Source of the DNA: Thermoproteota archaeon
GTDB taxonomy: Archaea > Asgardarchaeota > Jordiarchaeia > Jordiarchaeales > Freyrarchaeaceae
NCBI GenBank assembly: GCA_029258835.1
Contig: JAPDJY010000036.1
Coordinates: 1 to 58,782, forward strand
Length of the DNA stretch: 58,782 nucleotides
Direction of reading: 5' to 3'
Position numbers and translations under genes: made by a program. Shown here piece after piece: positions 17,649 through 47,621 of the stretch; within the stretch, counting starts at the first letter, position 1; each line of letters opens with the position of its first letter. The notes beneath the pieces are model-generated. The model was given only the letters and a program-made list of their open reading frames with translations. It searched no databases and was not told the DNA's origin.

Positions 17649-18030
17649 ATGCGGCGTTACGTGGACTGGCTGCGGCAGGCTGAGGCTGACCTTAGAGCTG
17701 CTGAGTCGAGCGTGAGCGCTGGCCACTACGAGTGGGCTTGCTTTCAGGCGCAGCAAAGCGCGGAGAAGGCTGCGAAAGCGCTGGCGGAGAAAAAGGGGAG
17801 AAAAATTCTTGGGCATTCTGTATCGTTTATTTTGAGGGATCTTGCTCCTTCAGGGGGGCTGTTAAGGATGGCTAGGGTACTTGACAGGTACTATATATTC
17901 CGACGAGGTATCCTAACAGCTTTGACCGTGGTGCCCCTATAGATTATTTTGGAAGGGAGGAGGCGGAGAGGCGGTGAAGTATGCGAGGAGAATCTTGGAG
18001 TACGTTAAGGAGGAGATCGGCAAGAGCTGA
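17649..18030 (+). pseudogene. HEPN-domain toxin, frameshifted
   Basis: WLRQAEADL, WACFQAQQSAEKAAKA, GHS; LDRYYI continues as PTRYPN in another frame, with a second shift near the end. Confidence 0.8.
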
Positions 18031-18421
18031 ATACATAAAAAGCTATGTTGAGAGGGTTGTGGAAGCTGAGAGGCCGGTTGGCATAGTTGTTTTCGGTTCG
18101 ACTGCGAAGGGGGAGGAGGGCGAGGGAGGCGACATAGATGGCTTGGTGATCTATGATGGGGAAGTCGACTACATGGAGAAGAGCTTGATTCTTAGGGAGC
18201 TCGAGGACTCATGCATGGTGGAGCCGTCCCCCTGCAGCTACGATCAGGTGGGGAAGATGGTTGAGGAGGTAAACCCCTTTGTGTTCGATGCACTGGAGGA
18301 CGGGGTGGTAGTTTACGATCGGGAGGGAAGGGTAAGGGAGTTACTGCGGTTGAAGGAGGAGGTTTCATTGAGGCTTGGCGTCGTAAGGACTGAAAGAGGA
18401 TGGGAGGTGGGGGCTGACTGA
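17981..18421 (+). CDS. Minimal nucleotidyltransferase (MNT) antitoxin
   Basis: VFGSTAKG..GDIDGLVI, ALEDGVVVYD; start uncertain. Confidence 0.85.
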   Translation: MRGESWSTLRRRSARAEYIKSYVERVVEAERPVGIVVFGSTAKGEEGEGGDIDGLVIYDGEVDYMEKSLILRELEDSCMVEPSPCSYDQVGKMVEEVNPFVFDALEDGVVVYDREGRVRELLRLKEEVSLRLGVVRTERGWEVGAD

Positions 18422-18543: not shown

Positions 18544-19614
18544 GTGGAGGAGAGGGTGAGTGGTGTGAGTGTCGAATTCAGAAGAATAGTTAAAAGCTCG
18601 GTGTTCTTGGACCCCAGAAGAGGGTTTGAAAGGGTTTCCCTGCCGATTGAGGTGCGCTTTGACCCTTTAACTGGGCGTGAATGCATGCTGGTGGACTTCA
18701 GGTTTAGACCGCCTGAAAAAGCCGATCTCTCGGATGTAATCGAGGAAACCGCTAAGGGCTGCCCTTTCTGCCCGGGGAACGCGGAGAAGGCTACCCCCAT
18801 GTTCACGGAGGAAATAGCTCCGGAAGGAAGGATAAGGGTGGGGGAGGCGTTGGTTGTCCCGAACATAATGCCCTACGCAGAGTACAGCGCGATAACCATA
18901 ATGACAAGGAGGCACTTCGTTGAAATATCCGGGTTTACGGAGGAGACGCTGGTGGACGCGTTCACTGCTTCGCAAACGTACCTTAAGAGGATTGCGGAGC
19001 ATGACGTAAACCAGAAATACCACTTTATAAACTGGAACTATATGCCTCCCTCGGGTGGAAGCATCATACACCCGCATCTTCAAGTGCTCTCATACGACAC
19101 GCCGCTAGGCTACTATGGGGAAAGGCTGAGGGCGTCCGAAAGGTACTACGAGGAGCATGGCGGCGTGTTCTGGAACGACTTAGTTGAGAGGGAGAGGGAG
19201 CTCGGTGAAAGATACATTGGAGGCGATGGCGGGGTGCACTGGATGACGGCTTTCACGCCGAGAAGCTACTTTTTCGAGGTGACAGCGGTCTTCCACGGCA
19301 AGCCCTCAATCCTATCCCTCTCAAGAGAGGATTTCAAGAGGTTTTCTAGGGGGCTCAGAATGGTGCTACGGTACATGGGCGACCAGAACATCTACAGCTT
19401 CAACCTCTCCATCCAGTCGGGGCCACCCGGAACGGAACACTTCTGGGTTAACGCCTCAATAATACCAAGATTCACCTTCCCACCCGTGAGCACGGCTGAC
19501 GCAGCATCCCTGCGGATGCTGAATGACACACTGTTCTGCTACAGGAAGCCTGAAGAAGTGTGCAGAGAGCTGAAAGAATATTTTAACGATAAAAACAAGC
19601 AGCCTAACGGTTGA
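18544..19614 (+). CDS. Galactose-1-phosphate uridylyltransferase (GalT)-like HIT-fold protein
   Basis: RFDPLTG, CPFCPGN, NWNY...GGSIIHPHLQ (HPHxQ). Confidence 0.85.
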   Translation: MEERVSGVSVEFRRIVKSSVFLDPRRGFERVSLPIEVRFDPLTGRECMLVDFRFRPPEKADLSDVIEETAKGCPFCPGNAEKATPMFTEEIAPEGRIRVGEALVVPNIMPYAEYSAITIMTRRHFVEISGFTEETLVDAFTASQTYLKRIAEHDVNQKYHFINWNYMPPSGGSIIHPHLQVLSYDTPLGYYGERLRASERYYEEHGGVFWNDLVERERELGERYIGGDGGVHWMTAFTPRSYFFEVTAVFHGKPSILSLSREDFKRFSRGLRMVLRYMGDQNIYSFNLSIQSGPPGTEHFWVNASIIPRFTFPPVSTADAASLRMLNDTLFCYRKPEEVCRELKEYFNDKNKQPNG

Positions 19615-19689
19615 AGGGACGGTCAACGTTTAACGTTGGGGGCTCCTGTGCTTGTTCGGTTTATATATGGTTGAAATGGTATTTAAGGT

Positions 19690-20724
19690 ATGAGCGTTGA
19701 AGATGTTTTACCCCGGGCTTTAAACTACTTGAAGAGGAGCGGCTACAGGGTTGACTCCATTAGTGGCGAAGCCGAGAGGCTAGTTGAGCTTTTCAAGAGA
19801 GGGGTGGAAGGGCGCCCAGCGATCAAGCCGTACCACGTTGACCCGCCGAGTCCCGCTCTTTACTCCTACCTGGATGCCGCCAGGCCCGTCGTGTACGCTG
19901 AGCAGAAGCTTGACGGAACCCACATACAGGTTTCAGGCAGCGGACTGTTCAAGCACAACGGGGATCCGGTGGCCAGCGACCAGCTTGGGGGGCTGATATA
20001 CGTGGCAGTCATGGAGCCCGAGAAAGCCAGGAGGATAATGGATGTGGCTGAGGAGGGGTACGTTGTGGAGGTGGAGCTCTTCGGAAGCAGGTATACTCCA
20101 ATGGGGTTCCATAAGGGCTACGAGAAGCCGTTTGACGTTGCAGTTTTCGAGGTGGGGTTAGAGGGCAGGTGGATACCTCCCCCGGAGAAGTACGAGGTGA
20201 TAGACGGGTTCAACCTGCCACGCCCCGGAGCGGTCAGGGTGGAGTATGATAGCGTAGACCAGCTTAGGGAGAGGGTTGAAAGCATAGCTCACAGGCCTGA
20301 CTGGTTTGAAGGGGCGGTGGTTAAAGCACCCTTCACGCCGAAGGAGGGCTTCCAAGTTAAAGAGTACGTTAAAACGGGGAGCTTACTTCTTTTCAAGGTG
20401 AAGAAGAGGGTTGAGTTGAAGCGGAGGAAGCCGAAGAAAAAGAAGAAAAAGGAAAGGGAGGAGCCTAGAGTTTACCTTGACGTGAAGGAGGAGGCTGTGA
20501 ACGAGGTTGCCAAGCTGGTGGTTGAGCTTGGAGAGGAATACGTGATGGACGCCAGAAACACCGGGGTGATAATTGAAAGGATAGTGCGGTACCTTGACGA
20601 GGCACACCCAACCCTAGTGGAGAGGTTTAAGGCTGAAGGCTTAACGGACAGGGATTTACGTAGAGCGGTAGGTGAGGCGGTTATGGACGCTAAAAGACGG
20701 CTGGCGAGGAGGCAAGGATCCTGA
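19690..20724 (+). CDS. ATP-dependent RNA ligase-like nucleotidyltransferase (Rnl2-like)
   Basis: Motif I EQKLDGTH, III EVELFG, IIIa AVFEV, IV FEGAVVK, V LFKVKK; helical C-terminal domain, no obvious OB domain. Confidence 0.8.
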   Translation: MSVEDVLPRALNYLKRSGYRVDSISGEAERLVELFKRGVEGRPAIKPYHVDPPSPALYSYLDAARPVVYAEQKLDGTHIQVSGSGLFKHNGDPVASDQLGGLIYVAVMEPEKARRIMDVAEEGYVVEVELFGSRYTPMGFHKGYEKPFDVAVFEVGLEGRWIPPPEKYEVIDGFNLPRPGAVRVEYDSVDQLRERVESIAHRPDWFEGAVVKAPFTPKEGFQVKEYVKTGSLLLFKVKKRVELKRRKPKKKKKKEREEPRVYLDVKEEAVNEVAKLVVELGEEYVMDARNTGVIIERIVRYLDEAHPTLVERFKAEGLTDRDLRRAVGEAVMDAKRRLARRQGS

Positions 20725-20801
20725 ACGGGACTCTATCCAAGAGGTGGTGGATGGAGGGGTGGAGGGGTGGAGGGCTGGAGAAGCTAAGAGGGCAGGGAGC
20801 A

Positions 20802-22301
20802 TTAAAGTTTAGCGTTAACGTCGAGGATGTGCTTGTATTCGAAGTTGATTAGTGCTAGTCGCTCCTGCCTCCAGTCCCTTGCGTTTTTTCCACCCCATAC
20901 GCCTTTAAGCTTATATGGGGGAATTGATATTTCCCCGAGAACCGTGGAGAGATAGTAGAGGAGGTCTCTCGCATCATCCCATCTCCCGACGTATGATTCC
21001 TGTTGCTGGGGGTGTTCGAGCTTTACGGGGATCACTCCCTGCTTAACGTAGTTCTCCATTGCTATGAAGGCTGCGTCATCCGTGGTGAAAACTATGGTGT
21101 CTCCCTTCTCTGCCGCGAAGCTCTTGTAGTCTAGGGCGATCTTCTCATCCCCGCTCTTGCCCGAGGCGTCCGAGCTGGCTACCTCATAGTTACGCTTGTT
21201 GAGCGTTTGCAGCTCTCCTTGAGCTATCATGAACAGCCTGGCTTTAGGTGTTAACTGGTTGGAGTACTCTCCCAGTTTGGGGTCGAATGGAAGCTTCTGG
21301 TTTACGTTCCTCGACACCTCCCTGAGAACCTCGTCGGAGACTGTGAAGTTTAGGCTTAGCATTTCAGCCTTTCTCTGAGCGTACTCTCGCTCCAAGAGCT
21401 CCATGAGCTTTGATGGGGCTCTGAAGATCAGGGAGTTCGTGTCGAATCCCACGTAGACCGTACGCCCTCCACCTGTAACCCTGTCCAAAACCTCCTTGAA
21501 GGCTTCCTCCTCGTTGGCGAAGCGCGCCATCCCTGAAGCCAGAACAACCTCCCTTATAAGGGAGGAGTCTCCGTGAGCCTCGTCGAAGAACGATCCAAGG
21601 TGGGGCTTAAAGAGTGCCTCGTTCTTTTTGAGTTTAAGGGAGAGGCGGCCGATAACCTGGTTTTTAACCTTCAAATCGTGAACCAGCTTATTGTCAAGGT
21701 AGAGGGAGTTTAAGACGCACATTACGTCCCTCCTGGTTATGAATACCTTCCCGCGTTCCCCCTTGGCGCGTTCTCCTGAGAGGGGTGGCGTGGATTTAAA
21801 CAGGGATTTCAGGTCGATCAGCTTTTGAAGGGAGAAGGGGATGTGGAAAAGGAAATTGTTCATGTAGCTTAGGTCTCTTAGTAGAAGGTAGACTACGTGG
21901 TCGGCGTACGTCATCCCGGCTGCGAGGAGAAGGGAGGACATGAACTTGCGTCCAGGAGTTATGTCTACGACGATACGGCCTTTCTTCTCCGCGTTGAGGC
22001 TTTTCAGAAGCTGCCCCACCTTACTTCTAAACTCCTCTATGTCCTCCTCGTAAACTCTAACGCTCTCGTCAGCCACGACCTCAACACTTTTACCGTAGTA
22101 CCTCGAGAGGGCGTCGACAAGCTCCTTGACGGTTTCAAGCTGTCTGGCAACCCCCTCATTCCAGATCAGATATACTCTGTCGGGTACGAAGCCATACGCC
22201 TCGGCAACATACCATATAACGTTGAAAACCGCCTGAGGAGAAATACTAACAGAAGTAACCCAAACGTCCACGTTGAACCCTCCAGCAACAAGAGCTGCCA
22301 C
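20802..22301 (-). CDS. CARF-PIN fusion (CRISPR ancillary protein)
   Basis: N-terminal VWVTSVSISPQAVFN...IVVDITPGRKFMS (CARF motifs); C-terminal VGFDTNSL, VLREV, GDEKI, FTTDD (PIN acidic residues); true start may be near 22270. Confidence 0.8.
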   Translation of the reverse strand: MAALVAGGFNVDVWVTSVSISPQAVFNVIWYVAEAYGFVPDRVYLIWNEGVARQLETVKELVDALSRYYGKSVEVVADESVRVYEEDIEEFRSKVGQLLKSLNAEKKGRIVVDITPGRKFMSSLLLAAGMTYADHVVYLLLRDLSYMNNFLFHIPFSLQKLIDLKSLFKSTPPLSGERAKGERGKVFITRRDVMCVLNSLYLDNKLVHDLKVKNQVIGRLSLKLKKNEALFKPHLGSFFDEAHGDSSLIREVVLASGMARFANEEEAFKEVLDRVTGGGRTVYVGFDTNSLIFRAPSKLMELLEREYAQRKAEMLSLNFTVSDEVLREVSRNVNQKLPFDPKLGEYSNQLTPKARLFMIAQGELQTLNKRNYEVASSDASGKSGDEKIALDYKSFAAEKGDTIVFTTDDAAFIAMENYVKQGVIPVKLEHPQQQESYVGRWDDARDLLYYLSTVLGEISIPPYKLKGVWGGKNARDWRQERLALINFEYKHILDVNAKL

Positions 22302-31564: not shown

Positions 31565-33799
31565 TTGGGTGGTGGCTTGACGGGGGATTCTTCGCTGGGG
31601 GATGCTATCGACTCTGTTGAGGCGGTGCTGGAGCGTAAGCTTGTCGCGACGGTGAAGGACTCCAAGTATTACCTTGCTGATACGAGGATACCTGGGGTTC
31701 TCCTGTATGATCATCTCTCTTTAACCGCCGGGATAACTGTGGCAATGGTTAAGGAGCTACTTAATAGAGGGCTTAACGCTTCAGACATCTGCGGTGTTCA
31801 GGTTGAAATTGATGAGAGAGGGCTTGTTAAACTGGCAAGGATCTTGGGGCTATGCCACGATGTCGGCAAGGTTTTAGGGGAGAAAACCGAGTACCGCCTA
31901 CACGTTGAGAGAGGGGTCGCATACATTAAGGGATTGCTAGACGAGCTTAACCCTCCAGAGAAATTAGTGGATTTAATCGTAGAGGCCTTGAACCGGCATC
32001 ATTTGGATAGGAATCCGAAGAGTGTTCTTGAAAAGGTTTTATGCCTCGCTGACAGCTATGCTTCGGCGGGGGATAGACCGGAGCTATCCAAGGCCATGAC
32101 AAGGGAGGAGTTTGAGAGGGTTATTAGCTCAACGGTTAAGCTTGAAAAAGAGCTTTTCGGCGAGGATAAACCAGTCAGGCTGATTCTAGGGGACGTTGAC
32201 AGGATTAAATCCTACGTGTTCGAAACCAGCAAGATTCCAGAGATAAGAGGAGGAAGCCAGATCCTAGTTGAGCTGGAAAAGGGGATCAGGAGGCTTTTCT
32301 GCAGCGAGCTGTGCGAGGAGGCACTTATCTATTGTGGTGGGGGAAGCTTCCTAGCAGTTGTTCCTGCAAGCGAGGCTGAGCGCTTGGGGAGGATCATAGA
32401 GGAGTCCTACTTGGAGAGGACAGGGGTTGCAACTATAACTGTTGTCTGCTCCGAGCCGCTTGGATATGAGAACTTCGCTCGCGGAGTAGAACCCTACGAT
32501 GATGAAAGCGTGTCCAAGATTGTTAAAGAGGTAAAGGATGGTGTAGCGGGGGATCTCGTCAAAAGCCATTTCTCCGTTTCAGAAGGGAGGAAAGGGTTCG
32601 GCGAGCTCGTTGCATCCCTCTCATCCGAGCTACGCTTGAAGAAGAAGATGAAGGAGCATGCCCCGTTCATACCCTCCATGCCGTTCCATAGACGCTGCGA
32701 CTCGTGCGGTAAAAGGCCGGCTGAAACCACACACGAGGAAAGCTACAGAGGGTTGAAAGAAGTGTTCTGGCTGTGCGGTATATGTAAAGCCAAAAGGAAG
32801 GAAGGGGAGGCGAGGGAGAAGCTGAGGTTCGCGGAGGAATTCACCAAATGGTACAATAGCTATAAGGGGAGGAAGAGCTCTATAAAAGTTCCCTTCACAT
32901 CCTTGGACGAGCTGGCTACACTCGATCCAAAGGGGAGAATCGCCTTCCTGTACGCTGACGGGAATGATATAGGGGATTTGCTTCAGAGAGCCAGAACCCC
33001 CGCCCAGTACCGCCACATATCGCAAACCCTAGAGGAAGCGATGAAAAATGCGTTGTTCAAGGCTATAATTGACGTCATGGGGGAGAAGGTGGAAAAGAAG
33101 GAAGTGCCGTTTGAAGTCATCGCCCTGGGAGGGGACGACGCAAGCGTCATACTTCCTGCACGCTACAGCTGGGATGTAGCAGTTAAACTAATGGAGGAAG
33201 CGGAGGAGCAGATGAGGGCGCTCGGCGAGGAGTTGAATCATCCCTTAACAGTATCTGTAGGGTTGCTCATAGCGGACGTGAAGTACCCCGTTCAGTTGAT
33301 GGAGAAGCTGGCGGAGGACTTGCTGAGGGAAGCTAAGAAGCGTAGTAGGAGCGGGGAGCGGAGGGAGAGCGCAATATGCCACCTCTGGCTGCGAAACCCC
33401 CTGCTAGCCGAGAGCGCTAAGGACATCATAGACAGGACGTACACGGTGAGGGTTCACGGTAAAACAGCGCGTTTAACCGGCAGACCCTACACTCTCAGCG
33501 AAGCCAAGACCCTAACCGAAATAGCCGATAGTTTAAGCGTGCCGGCGACGCAGCTAAGGGTCATGGCCGAGTCCTTAAGTAAGGGAGTTAGGTTTTCAGA
33601 GAACCTTGTCCTGTATCAAATCGCAAGAATGGATGACCTGGCAAATATGGAGAAGGCTCTCAGAAGAATGGGAGGGCTGCTGAGGGAGGAGGCGGCTACG
33701 TTTTGGGTGGTGGATGCAGATGGCGTCTACGGTGAGCGAGGAGGCTACGTCACCCCACTACTCGACGTGATAGAGCTTGTGGAGTTAAGGGGTGGTTGA
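31565..33799 (+). CDS. cas10: Cas10 (type III) with HD nuclease and GGDD palm domain
   Basis: LYDHLSLTA, HDVGK, GDVDRIKSYVF..IRGGS, CDSCG..CGIC Zn finger, YADGNDIG, GGDD. Confidence 0.95.
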   Translation: MGGGLTGDSSLGDAIDSVEAVLERKLVATVKDSKYYLADTRIPGVLLYDHLSLTAGITVAMVKELLNRGLNASDICGVQVEIDERGLVKLARILGLCHDVGKVLGEKTEYRLHVERGVAYIKGLLDELNPPEKLVDLIVEALNRHHLDRNPKSVLEKVLCLADSYASAGDRPELSKAMTREEFERVISSTVKLEKELFGEDKPVRLILGDVDRIKSYVFETSKIPEIRGGSQILVELEKGIRRLFCSELCEEALIYCGGGSFLAVVPASEAERLGRIIEESYLERTGVATITVVCSEPLGYENFARGVEPYDDESVSKIVKEVKDGVAGDLVKSHFSVSEGRKGFGELVASLSSELRLKKKMKEHAPFIPSMPFHRRCDSCGKRPAETTHEESYRGLKEVFWLCGICKAKRKEGEAREKLRFAEEFTKWYNSYKGRKSSIKVPFTSLDELATLDPKGRIAFLYADGNDIGDLLQRARTPAQYRHISQTLEEAMKNALFKAIIDVMGEKVEKKEVPFEVIALGGDDASVILPARYSWDVAVKLMEEAEEQMRALGEELNHPLTVSVGLLIADVKYPVQLMEKLAEDLLREAKKRSRSGERRESAICHLWLRNPLLAESAKDIIDRTYTVRVHGKTARLTGRPYTLSEAKTLTEIADSLSVPATQLRVMAESLSKGVRFSENLVLYQIARMDDLANMEKALRRMGGLLREEAATFWVVDADGVYGERGGYVTPLLDVIELVELRGG

Positions 33800-34421
33800 A
33801 GTGGCCAGGATATACGTGGAGATGGCTTTTGAGTTTAGTTCAGCTTTTCACACGTCCGGGAACCGGGCGGAGCTATGGGTTGACAAGTGCTTAAATCTAG
33901 AAGACGGGGAGTTGGTGATTCCAGCCACGTCCATAAAGGGGTGGATGAGGGAAAACGCTGAGAAAACCCTTAGAGGATTAGGCTGCAAGGTTTGTGATGG
34001 GTCCACTCCCCGCACCCAGTGTGGGGAATGCATAGTATGCAAGGTTTTCGGGTCCTATATGAGAAGGGCTCCTGTTCGCTTTCATGACGCTAGGGTGCGG
34101 GAGGGCTACGTCGTAGAATCCAGAACTGGGGTTTCACTAAGCAGGTTTAGGAGAACGGCTCTCGAGAGAAGGCTCTTCACGCAGGAAGCCGCATGGGTTG
34201 AAGAGGTAAAGTTCACGGTGGACGGCTTCTTCCCGAGCGAGGAGGAAGCTAAGAGCGCCGTAGCCCTCCTATGGCTTTCAGCGAAAGTTGGGGTTGCCAT
34301 GGGAGCCTCTAAGACGAGGGGTTTAGGCTGGCTGTCGCTGAGAGAGTTTAAAGCTAAGGTGGATGGCCGAGAAGTAGGCGAAGAGGAGGTTGCCAGCATA
34401 GTTGAGGGGTGGGTGCAATGA
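33792..34421 (+). CDS. csm3: Cas7-group RAMP (Csm3-like)
   Basis: IPATSIKG, CKVC..CGECIVCKVFG, MGASKTRGLG. Confidence 0.88.
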   Translation: MVEVARIYVEMAFEFSSAFHTSGNRAELWVDKCLNLEDGELVIPATSIKGWMRENAEKTLRGLGCKVCDGSTPRTQCGECIVCKVFGSYMRRAPVRFHDARVREGYVVESRTGVSLSRFRRTALERRLFTQEAAWVEEVKFTVDGFFPSEEEAKSAVALLWLSAKVGVAMGASKTRGLGWLSLREFKAKVDGREVGEEEVASIVEGWVQ

Positions 34422-35583
34422 TCGAAAAATGGTGCTGTGTAAAGCCGGAGAGCGTTGTAAGGGTTGGGGTTGTTAAAACGGCCACCCCGTACTTCGACAC
34501 GTTAAGCTACATACCGGGAAGCGTGTTGAGGGGTGCGGTGGCAGAGTGGCTCTCCATGAACGGCAGGGAAGGAGACATAAAGGCGTTCGTTGAGAACGTA
34601 CGTTTTGGATGCTTCACCCCGTCAAGCTTAAGTCCATATCGCTGCCATTCCCCATGAGCGCGCTTGAATGTAAAAGGCACGGCTACTTTACGAGCGTCCC
34701 AAGCGGTGTTACCCCCGGGCATGGTATAAGAGACCTCCTTCTACTCTCCACAGCCTACTTCGAGCTCAAAAGGCAAGGGGTGAAGCTACCTGTCCCATTA
34801 AACCTTAGATGTTTAAGGGAGGGGTGTGGAGGGAGACTGGAGCAGGCGAGCGGCTTCTACACCCGAACTAAGGATGGGTGGGTCAAGTGCAGCGTGGAAA
34901 AAACCGTTCAGACCAAGGTTGCCCTCAGCAGGCATAGGAGGGGAGCGCAGGAACACGCGCTCTATAGCGTGGTCGGCATTAAACCCAAAGGGTACTTCAC
35001 GGGGAGAATATGGGTTAAAAGTGAAGAATACTTGGAGCTGGTGAGGGTGGCGGTTGAGGAGGTAGGTATAGGATCTCTGACGACTCGAGGGTTCGGCAGG
35101 GTAAAGTTGAGTTTCCCCTCAGAGTTAAGCCTTCCCGGTGTTGAGGAGCGAGTGGCAGCGTTCAACAGCAAGCTGAGGGAGGTTTGGAGTAGCCTAGCTG
35201 AGCTGGCAAGGGTTTCGGGTAGCCGCGCGTCGGAGGAGCCCGAGTACACTTATTTCTCAGTAGACCTCTTATCCCCCGCAATATTCAGGGAAAGGGGGCT
35301 TCCATCGCTTAAGCTCAGCCTAGGCGGCGAGTTTGAACCTGTCCTATGGATGGCTCAGCCGGCATTCGTCGGAGGCTTCTCAACTGCCTGGGGGATCCCT
35401 AAGCCGGCCGAGCTGGGGGCATGCATGGGGAGCGTCTACGTTTTTAGAACCAAGGCTTCGGAGGAGGAGATTTCACCTTTCCTCAGGAGGCTTGAGGAGG
35501 AGGGGGTTGGGGAGAGGGTTGATGAAGGATATGGAGACGTTTTGATTTGTCACCCGTTTCACTGCGAGGTGATGCCAGTTTGA
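34418..35583 (+). CDS. csx10: Csx10 (Cas5-group RAMP), split by one frameshift near 34630
   Basis: YIPGSVLRGA in the first ORF; PFPMSALECK, IGSLTTRGFG, VGGFSTAWGIPKP, GERVDEGYG, HPFH in the second. Confidence 0.8.
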
Positions 35584-35993
35584 TGAGTCAAAAAGTTCAG
35601 ATGAAAATTAACAGTAAAATTGACGAAATAGTGGAGAAAGCGCATAAAATCGTAGAGGAAACCAAGATTTATAGCAAAGAAGGGCTATCCCCGACGCAAG
35701 TAAGGAACTTGCAGAACATGGCTAACGCCACAGACTCCATCGAAGCCTTAAAGAACTACATCTACTACCAGATGGGGCGCTCTAGGGGAAAGGAAGGTCA
35801 AAAGGAATGGCTATTTGGAGGATTCGGGAAGAAACTTCTGAGGGATCTCAACGAACTTGGCAGCCTGCTAGACTTAGATATGCTAAACGTCGGCGAAGAA
35901 GAGAGAAAAATGGCGCACATGCAGGCTATAAGACTCTACCTAGGTTTTCTTGCAAGATATTACACCTATAAGAAAGAAGCGAGCGGAACGTAG
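35583..35993 (+). CDS. Cas11 small subunit (Csm2-like)
   Basis: Helical; TQVRNL, NYIYYQMGR..W, RLYLGFLAR; ATG overlaps the csx10 stop. Confidence 0.75.
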   Translation: MSQKVQMKINSKIDEIVEKAHKIVEETKIYSKEGLSPTQVRNLQNMANATDSIEALKNYIYYQMGRSRGKEGQKEWLFGGFGKKLLRDLNELGSLLDLDMLNVGEEERKMAHMQAIRLYLGFLARYYTYKKEASGT

Positions 35994-36003
35994 AGGTGGT
36001 CAT

Positions 36004-36813
36004 GTGAGCTTCTACACGTTTAAAAACAGGTACTTCATCACCGGGAAGATCGTGGCGGAGACCCCCATCCATGTTGGGGCTCAAACATCGCTGATGCCTA
36101 CGGTCTCGGAGCTACCAGTCCTTAAAACCCATACCGGCTTACCATATATCCCCGGCTCCACCCTTAAAGGAGCCGTAAGGGCCTTTACGGAGAAAATACT
36201 CAGAACATTGAAGAAGATGAACCCTAAACTAGACATGTGGGCCTGCAACCCCCTAAGTGAAGATGGACAGTGTGTAAACGACAGAAAAAAAGAGAAGCTG
36301 GTAATTAAGCACACCGTTAATGGAGTATTCAACGATGAGAAGTTTTCCGAGGAGATTCTAGGTTTAACCTGCACTGCTTGCAGGATCTTTGGTTCAAAGT
36401 GGGTTGCGTCGAGAGTGCTCTTCAAAGACGCCTTGCTTACTAATAGCAGCGAGATGATCCGCTTGGTTGAGGTTCGAGACGGGGTTGCAATAGACAGGGA
36501 TACGGGGACAGCGAAGGCCAGGATGAAGTTTGACTACGAGGCGGTTCCGAGAGGAGCCGAGTTCAGCCTCCAAGTGGTCTTCGAAAACGCTGAGAAATGG
36601 GAGGTCGGACTGCTACTTCTAGCGTTAAAATCGATGGGTGAAGGGTTCCCGATAGGTGGGATCGCGAGGGGAGGGCTAGGATGGGGAGCGGTTAACATTG
36701 AAAAAGTGGAAGTGGTAAGCGGAAGCAACCTGCTAAGCTACCTGAAAACAGGGAAGAGAGAAGCATGCGATCCTGAAGAGCTCATCGACGAGTTTGCCAG
36801 GAGGGTGGGTTAA
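36004..36813 (+). CDS. csm3: Cas7-group RAMP (Csm3/Csx7 type)
   Basis: ETPIHVG, PYIPGSTLKG, CTACRIFGS, RDGVAIDRDTG, IGGIARGGLG. Confidence 0.9.
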   Translation: MSFYTFKNRYFITGKIVAETPIHVGAQTSLMPTVSELPVLKTHTGLPYIPGSTLKGAVRAFTEKILRTLKKMNPKLDMWACNPLSEDGQCVNDRKKEKLVIKHTVNGVFNDEKFSEEILGLTCTACRIFGSKWVASRVLFKDALLTNSSEMIRLVEVRDGVAIDRDTGTAKARMKFDYEAVPRGAEFSLQVVFENAEKWEVGLLLLALKSMGEGFPIGGIARGGLGWGAVNIEKVEVVSGSNLLSYLKTGKREACDPEELIDEFARRVG

Positions 36814-36814
36814 A

Positions 36815-37696
36815 GTGCATAGGCAGCTTTGGAATGTGATGAAGCTTGACTTTAAGATAAAACCAAGATCCCCCTTGCTTGTGAAGTCCGGCACCGAGCC
36901 GCTGGATCCATCCCTCCCAGACATGTACTTCGTCCGGACGGCGACGTCTCAAGGAGAAGCCATCTATATTCCCGGCTCATCGCTTAAAGGGGTCTTCAGA
37001 TCCTTCACCGAGAAGATTTTGAGAACGATTAGTAAGTCGGCGTCATGCGACCCCCTCAGCTCCTCCTGCGGTAAAAGGCTTGAAAAAGAGGAGGACGCCG
37101 TTAAGATATACGGGGAGTCATGTTACGTTTGCAAAATGTACGGGAACACCAAGCTTAAAGGGAGAATAAGGTTTTCCGACGCCTACCCTGAGGGAGGGGT
37201 GAAAACGGAGGTCAGGTACGGGGTCGCCATTTCAAGGCTCACGCAAGGCGTCGCCCAAGGACCATTCGAAATGGAAACAGTCGTCGAAGGAAGCTTCAAA
37301 GGGTCGCTGACGCTGGAAAACTTCGAGGCATGGCAAGTCGGCATGATCGCCTTAGTCATCAGAGCGCTAAACGACGGAGTGCTAAGGGTGGGTTATGGGA
37401 AGAACCGCGGGTTCGGCGAGGTCGAGTTTTCAGTCGGAAACGTCATGTTCCGCCTCGCGAAAAAGGAGAAAATGCCGGAAGACGAGGTATGGGGTGTGGG
37501 GTGCTACGTTGAGGATGACGGCTACAAGGTAACGCTCGGAAAAGACGATAAGATTTCAGGCCTCCCCAAGCCAGACAAGGTAGTAGACGCCGTAGTGTTC
37601 GAAGAACGGCTTTACTCTCCTACATCATGGGAGAACATAGCCGAGAAGAGCATGGAAACCCTAAGGGCTTTCAGTGAAAGAATAACCCGGAAGTAG
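36815..37696 (+). CDS. csm3: Cas7-group RAMP (Csm3-like)
   Basis: PLLVKSG..DP..PDM.FVR, YIPGSSLKG, CYVCKMYG, VGYGKNRGFG. Confidence 0.9.
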   Translation: MHRQLWNVMKLDFKIKPRSPLLVKSGTEPLDPSLPDMYFVRTATSQGEAIYIPGSSLKGVFRSFTEKILRTISKSASCDPLSSSCGKRLEKEEDAVKIYGESCYVCKMYGNTKLKGRIRFSDAYPEGGVKTEVRYGVAISRLTQGVAQGPFEMETVVEGSFKGSLTLENFEAWQVGMIALVIRALNDGVLRVGYGKNRGFGEVEFSVGNVMFRLAKKEKMPEDEVWGVGCYVEDDGYKVTLGKDDKISGLPKPDKVVDAVVFEERLYSPTSWENIAEKSMETLRAFSERITRK

Positions 37697-37708
37697 CGAG
37701 GTGCTACG

Positions 37709-38152
37709 ATGGTCTCCGTCTACCATGGAAAACTCCAAAAAGAGGAGTTAACCGAGATGGTTGAATCGCTCCCAAACACGCTGCACGTCTGCTGGAGTTT
37801 AGAAAAGATAGTTTTCGGGAAAGGTCCCCCAGAAGACGTGCTCGAAGAAGGAAGCGTGTTTAACGAGTCATGCGAGGTCAAGTGGAGAAAGGGAAAGGAC
37901 GGCTACGAAGTACTGGTGGTAAGCGACAAGGAAGCAAGCTTCAAGGAGTTAAGCCCGGTGGAAGGAAAGTGGGATGCCAAGAACATAACAACACACCTCA
38001 TATCCCTAACGGACCGCCGCTTCACCCCAACCCTAAAAGAATACCCTGAAGTCGGGAGCGAGGCATCACTAGAGTGCAGGCTTATCCGCCTCAACGGAAA
38101 CCCCCTGCTCATTAGCCCGAGAAAAATAGCTAAGCCCTCAGGGAAGGGGTGA
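37709..38152 (+). CDS. csx19: Csx19-like subunit
   Basis: EGSVFNESCEVKW motif; position between Cas7-type RAMPs as in type III-D. Confidence 0.65.
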   Translation: MVSVYHGKLQKEELTEMVESLPNTLHVCWSLEKIVFGKGPPEDVLEEGSVFNESCEVKWRKGKDGYEVLVVSDKEASFKELSPVEGKWDAKNITTHLISLTDRRFTPTLKEYPEVGSEASLECRLIRLNGNPLLISPRKIAKPSGKG

Positions 38153-38155
38153 AAA

Positions 38156-39109
38156 ATGTCGTCTAAACCCTTCACGTTCATCCCCATACCACGGGAGCCG
38201 CCCTCGAAATGGAAGATCACACCTCACATCGAATTCCAGCACTTAACAGGAAAGGTTGACCTTGAAGTGGAAGTCTCATCCGAATACCTCTTCGTCGGCT
38301 CAGGAAGCTACGAGTTCAACCCCAGACGCAGGCAGGGAGAAGCCGACGTCTGGCACGTCTTCCACCGCAGCAAAGGCACCATATGCATACCTGGAAGCAG
38401 CATAAAAGGAGCAGTCAGAACCCTAGTCGAAGCAATATCAAACTCGTGCGTTTCAACCCTAAAATCCAAAGAGAGAAAAGCAGTAGGGAAAAAGCACGCC
38501 AGATGCAATCCTGAAGAAGGAGAGCTATGCGTAGGGTGCAACCTTTTCGGAGCCGCAGGGTACAGAGGGCGCATCTCCTTCTCCGACGCCTTCCCCACCG
38601 GCGACGTAAAACTGGTCAAAGTAAAAATAGGGGAACTGTTCACCCCAAAAAGGTTCAAAGGACGCAAAATATATGAAAACAGAAGGTTCCAGCCCCTAGA
38701 CAGCCAGCACCCAGAAGCAAACCACCGCTTCGTCGAGGCAGCACCCAGAAACACCAAATTCAAAACAACACTACACTTCGAAAACGTCTCCGAAGAAGAA
38801 CTAGGAATAGTCTTCCACGCACTAGGCTGGAAAACCGAAGGAGACAAGGTAAACACCGCGTTCAGCATCAAGGTCGGCGGAGCAAAACCAAGATGCTTCG
38901 GAGCAGTCACCATCAAACCAGTAAAAGCCACCACCTGGAACATAAAAAACCTCAAACCATCACTAACAACATACACAGGGAAAAACCTCACACAGTTCAT
39001 CAAAGAATGCCTCTCCAAAGGAAAAAAACTCCTCCACGAAGACGCATACAACAAACTACTGGAAGCCCTAACCCCGAAAAGCCAGCCATGCCCAACGAGG
39101 GAATACTAA
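38156..39109 (+). CDS. Terminal Cas7-group RAMP of the type III-D-like operon
   Basis: KPFTFIP, IPGSSIKGAVR..EAISNSC, LCVGCNLFG, VGGAKPRCFG. Confidence 0.88.
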   Translation: MSSKPFTFIPIPREPPSKWKITPHIEFQHLTGKVDLEVEVSSEYLFVGSGSYEFNPRRRQGEADVWHVFHRSKGTICIPGSSIKGAVRTLVEAISNSCVSTLKSKERKAVGKKHARCNPEEGELCVGCNLFGAAGYRGRISFSDAFPTGDVKLVKVKIGELFTPKRFKGRKIYENRRFQPLDSQHPEANHRFVEAAPRNTKFKTTLHFENVSEEELGIVFHALGWKTEGDKVNTAFSIKVGGAKPRCFGAVTIKPVKATTWNIKNLKPSLTTYTGKNLTQFIKECLSKGKKLLHEDAYNKLLEALTPKSQPCPTREY

Positions 39110-40191: not shown

Positions 40192-41121
40192 CTAAGATTT
40201 GGTTAAAGCCATCGGTTTACTACATCTTATCATGCCCATTCCTGCTGTTCTTCTTATTCCCGTATTAGTATACTCTGCCATCTTTAGAAGAGCAGCTATT
40301 GTTTTTGCGTGATTTTCATCATATACTTCTTCCTTAATGGCAAATCTAACTTTTCCGGTAAAACCCACTATCCACCTGTTCATTAAAGGATCATCATAAA
40401 TTCTATGCGTCTTTATTCCGTCTGGGAAGCCCGTAACGAGAATTGCATTTTCAGCCCATTTAACTGCTCCCCAAACATCTATTATTATATCAGAAAAAGA
40501 TGACCATATTCTTGCAAGATTTCTAAACATTAACGACGGGAGTGGTAAGGGAATTGTTGCACTTTCATGACGTACTATATAACTACATGGTTTATTAATC
40601 GGTTCTTTTTCCGAACTTGTTAAATATGTCTTGTAATAGGGGCAGGTAGGGCAACAGTCATGTATTGTACGTCTAAAAGCTGTTGGTGTTATAAATCTTA
40701 TAGCGAACTTTGTTGGTAGACTCTTTACACTAGAAACTATATCAGAAAACCTCAGTATGTTAATTATAATATTGATAAGTTTTACTTTAATATTACCTAG
40801 TTCCAGCTTAAGATTTGGAGAGAGAACAGCTCTTTTAAAAACCTCTGAGAGTTCCTTGTCCATTATAGTAAATGTTACGTTAACGGTTGAAGGAGCATTA
40901 AGTTTTCTATAAATAACCCCTTTTGAACGCCCCTCAGCTATAAAAGGAGTTGCAGACCATGGTACTATCTTTTTAGAAGAATGTAACTCTTCGGCTAAGT
41001 CATCATCAACAGAACGTACTAAATTGTGAAATAAGTTGAAAGAGGTAAAACCTGAAAAACCCTGAAAGGTAATGTCCTCATCAACCATTAAATTTAACGT
41101 GAATGATGTCATATATTTCAT
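40192..41121 (-). CDS. cas6: Cas6 crRNA-processing endoribonuclease
   Basis: FITPTAF, PLPLPSLMF, GFTG, GIRRTAGMG G-loop. Confidence 0.92.
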   Translation of the reverse strand: MKYMTSFTLNLMVDEDITFQGFSGFTSFNLFHNLVRSVDDDLAEELHSSKKIVPWSATPFIAEGRSKGVIYRKLNAPSTVNVTFTIMDKELSEVFKRAVLSPNLKLELGNIKVKLINIIINILRFSDIVSSVKSLPTKFAIRFITPTAFRRTIHDCCPTCPYYKTYLTSSEKEPINKPCSYIVRHESATIPLPLPSLMFRNLARIWSSFSDIIIDVWGAVKWAENAILVTGFPDGIKTHRIYDDPLMNRWIVGFTGKVRFAIKEEVYDENHAKTIAALLKMAEYTNTGIRRTAGMGMIRCSKPMALTKS

Positions 41122-41275
41122 TTTTTACCCCACACAGACCATAGCTTCTTTATGTAGTAGCTCAAGTTTTGCTTTTATCGTCGATAATAGAATGATTATT
41201 TTAAAACTGAAAAATTTCTCATTTTTATCTGGAAAATAAATTGGTCTAATGACTTGCTTTGGTTTTAACATTTTA

Positions 41276-42472
41276 TTAGAGAAGCATTAAAGCTCTATGA
41301 GCTGCCAGTACTTCATTATCCTTTAATATGTTAATTTCAATTCCTGTAACATCTTTTCTTAATGATTGAAGCTTGGCAAGGGCATTGTTAAGGTAGAATG
41401 GTTCCCTGTTCTTAATGCTTAATGCTAATTCTATGAGAATGTTAAAAACCTGAGACCTATATTGTTCTCTCCGGGCGGTATTAATCAGATCGATTATCAT
41501 CCTCTTAAAACTCCAAAAATGTCTTCCTAATTGCTTATAAAATTCTAAGGTGTCCATCAAACTGAATTCCTCATATCCACGTGGGTTCTTTGGTGCACCC
41601 TTTGTTAAATCGTAATTGATAAGAAGGGTTGAGGGCATAATCCGGTATAACATATAAATTGCTGGAATATCGAGAAGACATAACAAAGAAAGAGGAAGAA
41701 CTACTGCAGGTAATGCTAAACGAAAAATATCCTGCATTTCAAGATTAATAACATTAACTATGCGCTTCACAAGTGCTAACATCTCTATAGCTTCTAAGTG
41801 AGAAAGACGCCTTCCAATCGGTGGAGAGAATACTAGTTGAGTCAATGCATTATTAACTTTCGTGTTTATGGAGTAATTAGCTAATCCAAAATATGCGAAC
41901 GGTAAAATTGGATTAACAACATAGGTTGCCGACTCATCCCATTTTCCCTTATCCCATACTCTTGATCCCTTTGACCAGTAAGGTGAAATACCGAGGTATA
42001 ACGTAGCATAATAGTCCTTTTCTGCTGCCTGTATCTTCTTTGATATGGGTTTAAAATTCCATGGGAAACGGAACTTATTCATGGATTCAAGATATCCAAT
42101 AAATACAGCATACGCCAAAATGTTTGTTTTTCCACATTTTCCACTAAAACCACAATCTCTCTTCCCAGTACAATAGACGCATACAGAATGAGGATTCTTA
42201 ATATACCATGCCTTATTCCCCACGTTTACAAGAAAATTTAGGTTATCAGCTATAGAAAATTTTCTTGAACCCTCGTTTCTTAGCTTGTTAATAATCTCTC
42301 TTCCTAACTGGTTGCTTGACATTTTTGACTTAATACTTAAGAAGATTTCTTCTCCCATTTTTACCTCAAACTTTATATTCGGATCAACCTTTAATCCAAT
42401 GTCCATAATTGCATATGTGAGTAAAGTATCGAGAACTCGGTCCCCTGTAGTTGGAAGATTTATCTGAGTCAC
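41276..42472 (-). CDS. Type I-A large subunit (Cas8a/CsaX-like)
   Basis: Position after cas3'' in the I-A operon; PTTGDRVLD N-terminus; TLYLGISPYWSKG motif. Confidence 0.65.
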   Translation of the reverse strand: MTQINLPTTGDRVLDTLLTYAIMDIGLKVDPNIKFEVKMGEEIFLSIKSKMSSNQLGREIINKLRNEGSRKFSIADNLNFLVNVGNKAWYIKNPHSVCVYCTGKRDCGFSGKCGKTNILAYAVFIGYLESMNKFRFPWNFKPISKKIQAAEKDYYATLYLGISPYWSKGSRVWDKGKWDESATYVVNPILPFAYFGLANYSINTKVNNALTQLVFSPPIGRRLSHLEAIEMLALVKRIVNVINLEMQDIFRLALPAVVLPLSLLCLLDIPAIYMLYRIMPSTLLINYDLTKGAPKNPRGYEEFSLMDTLEFYKQLGRHFWSFKRMIIDLINTARREQYRSQVFNILIELALSIKNREPFYLNNALAKLQSLRKDVTGIEINILKDNEVLAAHRALMLL

Positions 42473-43302
42473 CTTTCCATCACCCCTAAGAACATGCTTA
42501 ACCTGCTAGGTTTTCCTCCCCTTTTCATTGAGGCTAGATTATCTGATATCATTATTGGTTGAAGAATAGATGCTACAGCGAGACGTAGTGAAAGTGGCTC
42601 CAGCCAACCATCTATAATTGTTATAATAGACCCTAGCGTGTTAGCTACATCATATCCACTAATCAAATTCACGTCTTCAAAGTAATTAAGCTCTTTACCG
42701 AATACGAATTTTTCAATCTCAGAGGATACAAACCTCCATTTATTTATCATGCGAAACTCTCTCCCTGCCAGTAGATTTAGCAGGTAGCCATAAGTAGGAG
42801 CTCTCATCTCGTAATACTCATGACTTATCTGAAGACCTTCATGATGAAGATATACTGCTGCTGAAATTATCGATGAAAAAAGCTCAATTTCATGTTCATC
42901 TAGAGAAGACCTATCACTTAACATGCCCTTAACGTAATTATGAATTAGGAACGAGCTCACCATTTCATGCCTATAGAAGTTCCTGCTCCGAGACTGATAG
43001 TTCTCACATAGTTTCCCAACGTCATGGTAAAGAATAGCTATGCTGCAAAGCTCCCATAAAAACTTCAAATCCACGCTTATATGTAAAACACTTTCAAGAA
43101 TCCGACGAATAGAAGGCATATACCTGTTTGATATCCTCTTCCATTCATTCCAACATAACGTTACGTGTCTAACATAACATTCTTTGTTTCCTTCGCCAAC
43201 TGGATGATATGACACTATTACTGGCTCATTACTTCCATCACCACATATGCCCTTAATACCCCGCAGCGGACACTCCTTAAACTCACACGTCCACCTATTC
43301 AT
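42469..43302 (-). CDS. cas3'': Cas3'' HD nuclease
   Basis: H..HDVGK..YQ..RHEMVS..HHEG..SDN. Confidence 0.92.
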   Translation of the reverse strand: MNRWTCEFKECPLRGIKGICGDGSNEPVIVSYHPVGEGNKECYVRHVTLCWNEWKRISNRYMPSIRRILESVLHISVDLKFLWELCSIAILYHDVGKLCENYQSRSRNFYRHEMVSSFLIHNYVKGMLSDRSSLDEHEIELFSSIISAAVYLHHEGLQISHEYYEMRAPTYGYLLNLLAGREFRMINKWRFVSSEIEKFVFGKELNYFEDVNLISGYDVANTLGSIITIIDGWLEPLSLRLAVASILQPIMISDNLASMKRGGKPSRLSMFLGVMER

Positions 43303-45268: not shown

Positions 45269-45308
45269 ATGTCCTCACCCGTGAACGTCATTTAATTTAA
45301 GAAATTTG

Positions 45309-46244
45309 TCATCTTATTTTGTCTTTAACCTCTTTTTTATGCAGGACAATCCTTGTTTCTCCATCACCCGCTCCATCAATAGAATACACTTCATAGCTAC
45401 CCTTAGATACTACTGGAACGTTCGTCGGCTCAAATATTTCTCTCCCTTTGCGCTTAGCACTATGTAAAAGAGGAAGTACAAAATTAATTTTAATAGCTCT
45501 ATTCTTCTTAGTAATTTTCGTTTCATGTATTAAACGTAGATTAGGGTATAATGGCTCGATCAGGTATCCTCCAGAATACTGGTTAAGCGCTTCATGCAAC
45601 GTCTCAACCCATACAGCAGGTTCCTCAACTGGCACATAAGTATTAACTGTCGCCCGTTTCCCAACCTTTCTCACATATTTCACATGCTTAACCGATAATA
45701 CTCCGCCTAAAGCCTCTGTAGATCCAATCCTATCAATCATCTTTAAAGCTAAAAGCACATCTCTCCATTTGACCTCTCTACATCCATATTCACTAAGTTT
45801 CTCATTAAGTTCTTCAATACTTACCACATAGACAAGTTCCATCTCGTTAGAGAACACTATGTCATGCTTAAATGCATCGTGAAAGCTTGAAACAGCCTTA
45901 ATGAAGGCTTCACCGGAAAGCCCCATAACGCTGGAAGCATATACTTTATTCTGCTCAATTGCTGGGACAATACGTAAAATCTGTGAGGTCTTAACCAAGG
46001 GAGATAATGGACGTACAAATCCATAAGATGAGAGCTCAACGGCCTCCATTAGAACCTCACGTGCACTTCGCCCTTTAATTAAGGTCTCACCGCTTTCTAT
46101 ACCCAGTATTATCCCTAAACCCTTAGCTAATGCGCCAAGAATTGTACGTGGTGAAGGCAGCCTTGAAGATAACCGAATGCCCCACGATTCCCCATACCTA
46201 ACATAAAAAAGAGGAAGAAAAACTTTCGCACTAAATATCTCCAA
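45309..46244 (-). CDS. cas5: Cas5 (type I-A)
   Basis: LPSPRTILGALA, IDRIGSTE; lies between cas7 and cas3'. Confidence 0.88.
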   Translation of the reverse strand: MEIFSAKVFLPLFYVRYGESWGIRLSSRLPSPRTILGALAKGLGIILGIESGETLIKGRSAREVLMEAVELSSYGFVRPLSPLVKTSQILRIVPAIEQNKVYASSVMGLSGEAFIKAVSSFHDAFKHDIVFSNEMELVYVVSIEELNEKLSEYGCREVKWRDVLLALKMIDRIGSTEALGGVLSVKHVKYVRKVGKRATVNTYVPVEEPAVWVETLHEALNQYSGGYLIEPLYPNLRLIHETKITKKNRAIKINFVLPLLHSAKRKGREIFEPTNVPVVSKGSYEVYSIDGAGDGETRIVLHKKEVKDKIR

Positions 46245-46248
46245 ATTT

Positions 46249-47235: not shown

Positions 47236-47621
47236 TCACCAACTTCCTTTCTCCAGCAAAGTGGACAACTAGCAACAACCAGACCTGAAAGAGCTTTAAT
47301 GAAATCAGAACCTAATATATTATAGTACTTCAAAACTTGAGCTTCGTCGTCTTTACTTGGAAGATAAAGCCTACCTATGTCGCTCTTATACCTCTCATCC
47401 CTTTTAAGCGCGTCCAAATTTCTAAGAGCTCTTCCGATAAGTTCAAGAAGCTTAGCTCCACTACGTATAAACTTCAATTCATAGTAATACTGTTTAATCT
47501 CGCAATGAACGACCAAATAATGAAAAATCTCTGCTACTCGTTTTACAGACTGGTCAGTAACAGCTTCAAAGAGCAAATCCTTGGAAGTTCCTTGCACTTG
47601 CTTCTGCGAACTCATATTCAA
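47232..47621 (-). CDS. csa5: Csa5/Cas11 small subunit (type I-A)
   Basis: Small helical ORF leading the csa5-cas7-cas5-cas3'-cas3''-cas8a order. Confidence 0.65.
   Translation of the reverse strand: MNMSSQKQVQGTSKDLLFEAVTDQSVKRVAEIFHYLVVHCEIKQYYYELKFIRSGAKLLELIGRALRNLDALKRDERYKSDIGRLYLPSKDDEAQVLKYYNILGSDFIKALSGLVVASCPLCWRKEVGE

Follow-up and report, generated by a model that had tools for sequence, protein, structure and literature searches.

An RNA ligase gene convergent with a CARF-PIN nuclease gene at the border of a Jordarchaeia CRISPR-cas island

To our knowledge, nobody has yet explained how cells recover after the effectors of type III CRISPR systems have shredded their RNA: ring nucleases switch off the cyclic oligoadenylate (cOA) signal, and the reversal of the damage is left unexplained by them. 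This question is raised by a stretch of 58,782 nucleotides from an Asgard archaeon of the class Jordarchaeia (contig JAPDJY010000036.1 of GenBank assembly GCA_029258835.1), the whole of which is referred to below as the window. At the edge of its CRISPR-cas island, a gene for a predicted RNA ligase ends close to the stop codon of an oppositely oriented gene for a CARF-PIN fusion protein, and the two have been proposed to form a cut-and-repair pair that would make dormancy reversible. Does this adjacency reflect a repair system, or the way in which the island is built?

The best explanation, to which we give an even chance of being correct, is island architecture, with a CRISPR-independent ligase standing at a variable slot for defence genes. 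The basic job of the ligase would be the sealing of RNA, independently of CRISPR. In the Jordarchaeia family of the host, the ligase gene, with a putative promoter of its own, sits at the border of the CRISPR-cas island, and the slot downstream of it is occupied by different genes: a CARF-PIN gene of the CARF_m1 type here, an unrelated Csx1-like CARF-HEPN gene in the sister genus and, in Thermoproteota, a HEPN-MNT pair, an unnamed two-gene cassette or genes that have no part in defence. The CARF-PIN protein would be one of the usual accessory effectors in type III cOA signalling, whose CARF domain is expected to bind cOA and whose PIN domain is expected to cut RNA in a metal-dependent manner. 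The tail-to-tail adjacency would then be mainly a matter of island architecture rather than the mark of an obligate two-gene system, and the ligase may still take the opportunity to reseal breaks of the PIN type. A recombination-prone slot beside the ligase would also account for the differing small cassettes found in Thermoproteota. The elements at the centre of this explanation are the following.

19660–19667 (+): TATA-box-like sequence TTTATATA, 23–30 nt before the ATG of the ligase gene, read directly from the sequence
19690–20724 (+): ligase open reading frame (ORF), 344 amino acids (aa), open, stop codon TGA at 20722–20724
20725–20801: spacer of 77 bp between the convergent stop codons
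20802–22301 (−): CARF-PIN ORF, 499 aa, open, stop codon TAA (TTA on the plus strand) at 20802–20804

Both ORFs are open and the spacer reads as 20725–20801, which confirms the convergent arrangement and the 77 bp from stop to stop given in the original prediction. The box TTTATATA is probably the ligase's own promoter, from which a leaderless or near-leaderless mRNA would be made, and its presence before the ligase ATG, together with the convergent orientation of the genes, argues for separate transcription of ligase and CARF-PIN. In the middle of the spacer there is a G-rich octamer repeat (TGGAGGGG, 3.6 copies, 20752–20780). Neither an oligo-T run nor a terminator-like hairpin was found in the spacer, so that the convergent transcripts might overlap. 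The remainder of the island is laid out as follows.

27930: csa3
31565–33799 (+): cas10 of the neighbouring type III module, with an HD motif and an intact GGDD cyclase motif
31565–39109: type III module, with Cmr-type RAMP genes to its end
40192–47621: AT-rich type I module with cas6
51451 to the end of the window: CRISPR array

The pair does lie at the edge of the CRISPR island, as had been stated, since csa3, cas10, the RAMP genes, the type I genes and the array are all to the right of it. Adaptation genes are also found on that side, and the interval between CARF-PIN and csa3 holds two genes without assignment and an AAA/metallopeptidase–vWA pair. CARF-PIN presumably receives its cOA signal from Cas10, which carries both the HD and the GGDD motif. 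To the left of the ligase there are ordinary genes, encoding a GalT-like protein, an MNT-type nucleotidyltransferase and a MaoC hydratase.

The Pfam family RNA_ligase (PF09414), whose cut-off is 27 bits, matches the ligase at a borderline score of 27.2 bits (28.9 bits when the genome was scanned). However borderline the profile match, all five of the motifs reported earlier are present, and their catalytic residues do not vary among the 24 aligned members of the ligase's own family: K73-x-D75-G76 (motif I), E129 and G132 (motif III), F153 (motif IIIa), E207-G208 and K212 (motif IV, EGxxxK) and K236-x-K238 (motif V). The same alignment has an invariant Y48, and an H49 conserved in at least 90% of the sequences, in a P-Y-H sequence located before motif I, as well as invariant E268, K275 and H306 in the C-terminal domain. 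In the AlphaFold (AF2) model, whose mean confidence (pLDDT) is 93, the protein is arranged in this way.

Residues 3–39: helical hairpin (helices 3–16 and 27–39)
Residues 47–49: P-Y-H
Residues ~65–240: nucleotidyltransferase (NTase) domain
Residues 243–255: Lys-rich disordered linker
Residues 260–343: all-helical C-terminal domain

The model, helical throughout residues 260–343, contains no OB domain. A Foldseek search with it placed RNA ligases on top (Trl1, T4 Rnl2 and archaeal Rnl3, E ~1e-6), and structural alignment with VIA-align gave Z-scores of 13.6 for NgrRnl (Rnl5), 12.7 for MthRnl (Rnl3), 12.4–12.6 for T4 Rnl2 and 12.5 for Rnl1, with the DNA ligases (10.5–11.3) below the RNA ligases. 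Since VIA-align scores within 1 unit are to be read as ties, a range that among these RNA ligases is exceeded only by the gap between Rnl5 and Rnl2 (1.0–1.2), the NTase fold ties with those of Rnl5, Rnl3, Rnl2 and Rnl1. Pfam gave no match to T4_Rnl2_C (PF18043) at E-values of up to 1, none to Lig_C and none to DNA_ligase. The helical C-terminal domain can be aligned in order with the T4 Rnl2 structure 2hvr, but only at a root-mean-square deviation of 15.4 over 254 residues. The designation ‘Rnl2-type’ is thus not established, given the tied folds and the lack of a T4_Rnl2_C match. The assignment to RNA rather than DNA ligases, by contrast, held: the protein has no OB domain or motif VI, RNA ligases rank first and a DNA ligase is unlikely. 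Among its language-model neighbours in the ESM Atlas, PF09414 is present in each of the nearest named clusters listed.

The family is tiny, with 26 related clusters among 1.84 billion cluster representatives in an exhaustive HMMER search. No PADLOC model matches the ligase, and a sequence search of the PDB with either the ligase or CARF-PIN returned nothing usable. No viral homologue turned up in a scan of viral contigs or in PHROGs, and an origin of the ligase in phage counter-defence was dropped on that ground. Judging from its motifs and its predicted fold, the ligase is an intact enzyme of the RNA ligase superfamily (PF09414) that belongs to an undescribed and rare archaeal clade, and its activity is most likely the ATP-dependent sealing of broken RNA with 3'-OH and 5'-phosphate ends. 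The ligase is a novel form of enzyme from a known superfamily, CARF-PIN is a member of a known family, and it is their pairing that is hypothetical.

The identification of the second gene as a CARF-PIN fusion proved sound, in view of its full-length match to the CARF_m1 profile, the CARF and PIN folds of the product and its conserved acidic residues. The PADLOC profile CARF_m1--CARF_PIN (PDLC01973) was matched with an E-value of 3.6e-144 (positions 3–463 of 465) and the profile CARF_PIN (PDLC01068) with 5.7e-80; in Pfam, the CARF matches were sub-threshold and the PIN match was faint. Across 13 homologues there is no variation in four acidic residues of the PIN domain (D287, E324, D385 and D408) or in the CARF loop DITPGRKFMS. 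The AF2 model (pLDDT 87) has three parts.

Residues ~11–175: CARF domain
Residues ~180–260: beta-rich middle domain
Residues ~280–436: PIN domain, with a C-terminal extension

Over its full length the model aligns with SiRe_0806 (9jxw; Z 23.9, 380 residues; Foldseek E 8e-18). Taken separately, residues 9–175 match CARF proteins with Z-scores of 12–15.6 (VC1899 15.6, Card1 15.4, Can2 15.0) and residues 280–436 match PIN domains with Z-scores of 8–11 (3i8o 11.0, Nmd4 9.8, AF0591 9.2, Utp24 9.0). Matches to TAL effectors were rejected as spurious, being sums of weak repeat matches with 0 significant stretches. The true start of CARF-PIN is probably the GTG at 22271 (codon 11), which would leave the first ten codons untranslated, because homologues begin there, GGAGGG lies just upstream and residues 1–8 have a pLDDT of less than 50. 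CARF-PIN fusions are a catalogued class of predicted effectors (PMC4012209, PMC6546367, PMC12669027); one such protein, ST0035, bound cyclic tetra-adenylate (cA4) weakly in a published test, and its RNase activity was not induced (PMC6546367).

Analysis of the ligase neighbourhoods within Jordarchaeia revealed three diverged lineages of a sister genus (loci L001, L007 and L011), whose ligases are 64–66% identical to that of the window. The gene order in L007 and L052 is csa3, ligase and a convergent CARF-HEPN gene, and the same order is found, with insertions, in L001 and L011; katG is one of the insertions seen upstream in the sister-genus loci. The CARF-HEPN protein is Csx1-like (Pfam Cas_Cas02710), and its gene is followed by a helix-turn-helix gene, a Csx1/APE2256 gene and a Cmr2-type cas10. 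There is no detectable sequence similarity between this CARF-HEPN protein and the CARF-PIN protein of the window, and the Cas10 of L001 (1139 aa) has no match in the window. As the effectors are unrelated and the Cas10 is unmatched, the ligase kept a convergent CARF RNase through the exchange of both effector and module. An in-situ swap of the CARF domain is ruled out by the lack of any similarity between CARF-PIN and CARF-HEPN, which means that whole genes were exchanged. In a quick maximum-likelihood tree (IQ-TREE), the Jordarchaeia ligases form a single clade with an SH-aLRT support of 100, and the window ligase is sister to the rest of it.

Another ligase of the class, 61% identical (L009), is surrounded by transporter genes, and the nearest 8 kb contain no cas gene. 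The ligase of genome G001 (G001:C68; L050:9011–10048, the same as L030:10001–11038) is in four frame pieces with one in-frame TGA and is apparently a pseudogene; none of the island proteins tested matches near this locus. The frameshifts in G001 and the absence of cas genes around the L009 ligase indicate that the ligase can decay or leave the island. In total, the ligase is linked to type III cas genes in four of the six Jordarchaeia contexts.

The homologous loci were collected with an 11-sequence ligase alignment, and all the remaining homologues, from genome and metagenome contigs, come from Thermoproteota or from unassigned contigs of hot environments. The family is confined to thermophilic Thermoproteota and Jordarchaeia, and in none of the Thermoproteota contexts is the ligase linked to type III cas genes. 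A census of the neighbours of the non-Jordarchaeia ligases covered 92 genes within 6 kb at ~10 distinct loci. In the tally of the 25 commonest Pfam families, each with at least two members, PIN (5), Polbeta/MNT (4 and 3) and HEPN (3) come first, and there is no cas or CARF family. Cas10 (palm2) was detected in one of the five ligase-bearing Thermoproteota genomes, which are metagenome-assembled, so that its absence from the others is not proven. The gene directly downstream of the ligase varies and may be a HEPN-MNT pair, cytochrome oxidase subunit I, a HAD hydrolase, a peroxiredoxin, DUF8196 or an unnamed two-gene cassette. The HEPN-MNT pair is seen in L024 and L026; these loci are closely related (identities of 78% and 84%) and represent one event, for which reason we rejected them as a case of recurrence.

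Two of these downstream positions deserve description. In one Thermoproteota group, a gene for a HAD-superfamily hydrolase follows the ligase after 39 bp on the same strand (L028:11030–11803 (+); L043:1208–1978), and in the close relatives L040 (10708–11483), L041 and L042 a two-gene cassette (147 and 114 aa, opposite strand) is located between the ligase and the HAD hydrolase. Thus, the position after the ligase accepts small cassettes. In one Thermoproteota clade, a DUF8196 gene is convergent with the ligase (L036:11067–11822 (−), L005 and L037), with remnants in L010. The first 127 residues of its product match the PADLOC model C3a181 (‘Diadenylate cyclase’, a type III accessory cluster) with an E-value of 4.4e-13, and in L044 and L045 a copy that is 34–37% identical stands at a distance of ~7.9 kb from the ligase.

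The distribution of CARF-PIN does not follow that of the ligase. Among the 11 genomes of the class that were compared, CARF-PIN-like genes are present in seven and the ligase in four; in the neighbouring family (f2), five of the six genomes carry CARF-PIN-like genes and none carries the ligase. Homologues from Thermococcales, 41–45% identical, are located directly after cas3 or beside a cmr operon, with no ligase within 8 kb. Genome G003 encodes both proteins on different contigs, and its ligase faces a CARF-HEPN gene. The CARF-PIN orthologue of G003 (63% identical; L059:9522–11075, G003:C33) lies downstream of a type I-A module whose last gene is cas6; the module and CARF-PIN are separated by an ORF of 171 aa on the opposite strand. 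The gene order around it resembles that of the AT-rich 40–47 kb module of the window, which suggests that CARF-PIN travels with the type I-A/cas6 module rather than with the ligase. In the contexts compared, no homologue outside the species of the window has a ligase beside CARF-PIN. The genome of the window also encodes a second, distant CARF-PIN paralogue (24% identical; G000:C48:13200–15735, L060:7200–9735), which is split into a 154-aa CARF ORF and a 308-aa PIN ORF, adjoins a Csx1/APE2256-like gene and has no ligase beside it; the same split form is found in five of the six genomes of family f2. The expected linkage of ligase homologues to CARF and cas genes was therefore upheld in part: a convergent CARF RNase is present in three lineages of the sister genus, whereas no cas or CARF family is in the Pfam tally of the Thermoproteota neighbours and the CARF-PIN orthologues elsewhere have no ligase beside them.

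Immediately upstream of the ligase, on the same strand and separated by 75 bp, is a gene (18544–19614 (+)) for a weak relative of galactose-1-phosphate uridylyltransferase, of the HIT-like superfamily (PDB 6k5z, E 1.4e-4; Pfam DUF4931_N, E 1.3e-3). This GalT-like gene stands beside the ligase only in the near-identical contig L031, and not in the sister genus. Some 1.3 kb upstream of the ligase (17649–18421 (+)), a gene for an MNT-type nucleotidyltransferase (146 aa, Pfam NTP_transf_2) follows a 97-aa ORF that has no family match; MNT and HEPN genes recur near the ligase homologues of other genomes. A scan of the host genome also found RtcB encoded elsewhere. Parts of the window are present in 19 sequencing runs, whose records name vent, sediment and seawater metagenomes; one of these runs is a metatranscriptome, with a small share of the window.

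How well does island architecture compare with the alternatives? In the mechanism of the original prediction, a cOA-activated PIN nuclease nicks tRNA or rRNA and a dedicated ligase reseals it after the signal has decayed, so that dormancy ends. Metal-dependent PIN nucleases leave 3'-OH and 5'-phosphate ends, which ATP-dependent ligases can join, and the mechanism is therefore chemically sensible for this pair, whose genes are adjacent at 77 bp, whose catalytic motifs are intact in both proteins and which has a cas10 with an intact GGDD motif 9 kb away. The adjacency of ligase and CARF RNase also recurs in the sister genus, but there the partner is a HEPN RNase. HEPN products have a 2',3'-cyclic phosphate and a 5'-OH, so that this class of ligases needs a kinase/phosphatase to act first, and no such enzyme is adjacent. 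Because, in addition, CARF-PIN homologues beyond this species (including the 63%-identical orthologue of G003) have no adjoining ligase, the ligase family is found mostly without type III systems and the two genes are separate convergent units rather than one operon, a dedicated pair is not favoured, and we consider it quite unlikely. The host, moreover, already has RtcB, and the weak cA4 binding and uninduced RNase activity of ST0035 (PMC6546367) point the same way. Of the cut-and-reseal proposal, then, the chemistry is sensible and the resealing itself is conjectural, comparison with relatives not favouring a dedicated pair.

A broader role, which we regard as doubtful, would be that of a general RNA-repair arm of the cOA response, an archaeal analogue of RtcR-RtcBA in which the ligase, drawn into the neighbourhood of the signalling genes, is induced or used after any CARF-RNase episode, regardless of the effector, together with cellular end-healing enzymes. 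The csa3–ligase–CARF-HEPN order of L007 and L052 (with insertions in L001 and L011), the survival of the adjacency through replacement of effector and module, and the gene with a phosphatase fold of the HAD type after the ligase in one Thermoproteota group all agree with such a role, and there is a bacterial precedent in RtcR, with a CARF domain that binds RtcAB and controls genes for RNA repair (PMC7790460, PMC9650030). In the window, however, csa3 is 7 kb away, beyond the CARF-PIN gene, no kinase or phosphatase stands next to the ligase, whose upstream neighbour is GalT-like, and no regulatory site was identified; furthermore, the ligase has been lost or has decayed in related lineages that are otherwise indistinguishable. 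The bolder version, that Jordarchaeia recruited a new clade of ATP-dependent RNA ligases as the recovery arm of the type III cOA response, resealing the cuts of whichever CARF RNase is present (those of PIN directly, those of HEPN after healing), appears to us unlikely. The word ‘ligase’ is absent from the text of one survey of type III accessory genes, of one survey of CRISPR-linked genes and of the 2025 CRISPR-Cas classification. It is very unlikely that the substrate is another one altogether, the ligase sealing nicks in DNA or RNA:DNA hybrids (for example, after nicking by Cas10-HD or type I-A) or adenylylating a different acceptor. There is a resemblance to DNA-ligase motifs as well in motif V (F-K-V-K-K) and in the surroundings of motif I (E-x-K-Y/F/L-D-G-T-H-x-Q), DNA ligases score only 2–3 units under the RNA ligases (Z 10.5–11.3) and enzymes of the T4 Rnl2 type are known to seal hybrid nicks as well. 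Against this, the protein has no OB domain or motif VI and is helical after residue 260, every one of its top neighbours, by structure or by language model, is an RNA ligase or a PF09414 cluster, and a 589-aa ORF elsewhere in the genome (C4), which also matches PF09414, would from its length be the canonical DNA ligase.

Several points weigh against island architecture, which we nevertheless prefer. Both basal branches of the ligase clade of Jordarchaeia show the adjacency of ligase and CARF gene, which has outlasted ~35% protein divergence, the non-orthologous replacement of the effector and the exchange of the type III module; such persistence is not easily put down to pure chance. By a rough estimate, RNase toxins (PIN and HEPN) are about threefold over-represented near the distant ligases, a figure set against a background counted for HEPN alone (~1% of the genes in these genomes). 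This fits a theme of RNA damage, and the modest enrichment fits also the co-residence of these genes in variable defence or toxin-antitoxin regions. RtcR, a CARF protein, and RtcBA provide a precedent for CARF-linked RNA repair (PMC7790460, PMC9650030), and the comparison within the class is a thin one, with 11 genomes among which relatives are not independent and with absences that count for less because metagenome-assembled genomes are incomplete. The persistence of the adjacency across two genera fits either a weak general link between ligase and cOA or a ligase that flanks a recombination-prone slot, and a repair role of the ligase is possible but unproven.

If the ligase is truly coupled to CARF RNases, it would be the first repair component of the type III pathway and would offer a testable model of reversible dormancy for Asgard archaea. 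Regardless of any link to CRISPR, a rare, uncharacterised clade of RNA ligases from thermophiles, with N- and C-terminal modules of its own, may interest enzymologists of RNA ligases. The identities of the genes, their motifs, folds and contexts are solid; it is for the substrates, the activation by cOA and any repair that we rely on inference.

Among known enzymes, the ligase is closest to the nick-sealing ligases of PF09414 (T4 Rnl2, 2hvq/2hvr; NgrRnl, 5cot; MthRnl, 5d1o; Pab1020, 2vug), with which it shares the nucleotidyltransferase fold (~175–183 residues aligned) and the five motifs at only 12–17% sequence identity. Its NTase domain, like that of Rnl2, Rnl1 and Trl1, is followed by an all-helical domain. 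Unlike the Rnl5 enzymes (NgrRnl and DraRnl), it is without an N-terminal OB-like domain and has an 85-residue helical C-terminal domain, which Rnl5 lacks. In ATP-dependent DNA ligases the NTase domain is followed by an OB-fold domain carrying motif VI, which the ligase lacks. Peculiar to its family are the helical hairpin and the P-Y-H before motif I, the Lys-rich linker and the E268, K275 and H306 of the C-terminal domain. The nearest structural counterpart of CARF-PIN is SiRe_0806 of Sulfolobus islandicus (9jxw alone, 9jxx with cA4), which has the same three-part architecture over its whole length, although CARF-PIN is only ~15–17% identical to it and ~85 residues longer; the ligand of SiRe_0806 is taken here from the PDB title, which names cA4, and its activity is not transferable to CARF-PIN. 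Relatives of the CARF_m1 type include Msed_1167 and ST0035 (Shah et al., 2018; PMC6546367), and CARF-PIN adjoins type III and type I cas genes like its homologues in Thermococcales.

As for repair systems, T4 Pnkp and Rnl1, which mend tRNA cut by PrrC, follow the same logic of a cut made by a defence RNase and then resealed. That system, however, is phage-borne counter-defence and needs an end-healing kinase/phosphatase, whereas the genes of the window are chromosomal and have no such enzyme adjacent. In the heal-and-seal systems in general (Pnkp/Hen1, T4 Pnkp-Rnl1, RtcBA), the ligase shares an operon with an end-healing enzyme, which is not the case here. The closest conceptual precedent is the bacterial operon of RtcR with RtcB and RtcA, in which a CARF domain that acts as a sensor is connected with an RNA ligase (PMC4012209, PMC7790460, PMC9650030). 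RtcB is GTP-dependent, has an unrelated fold and joins ends with a 3'-phosphate or cyclic phosphate and a 5'-OH, whereas the window ligase is of the ATP/5'-phosphate class; likewise, RtcR is a sigma-54 activator encoded before its operon, whereas the CARF protein of the window is a nuclease encoded convergently with the ligase. Should the recovery-arm reading prove true, the Jordarchaeia ligase would represent an archaeal, ATP-ligase version of the bacterial CARF-RtcB connection.

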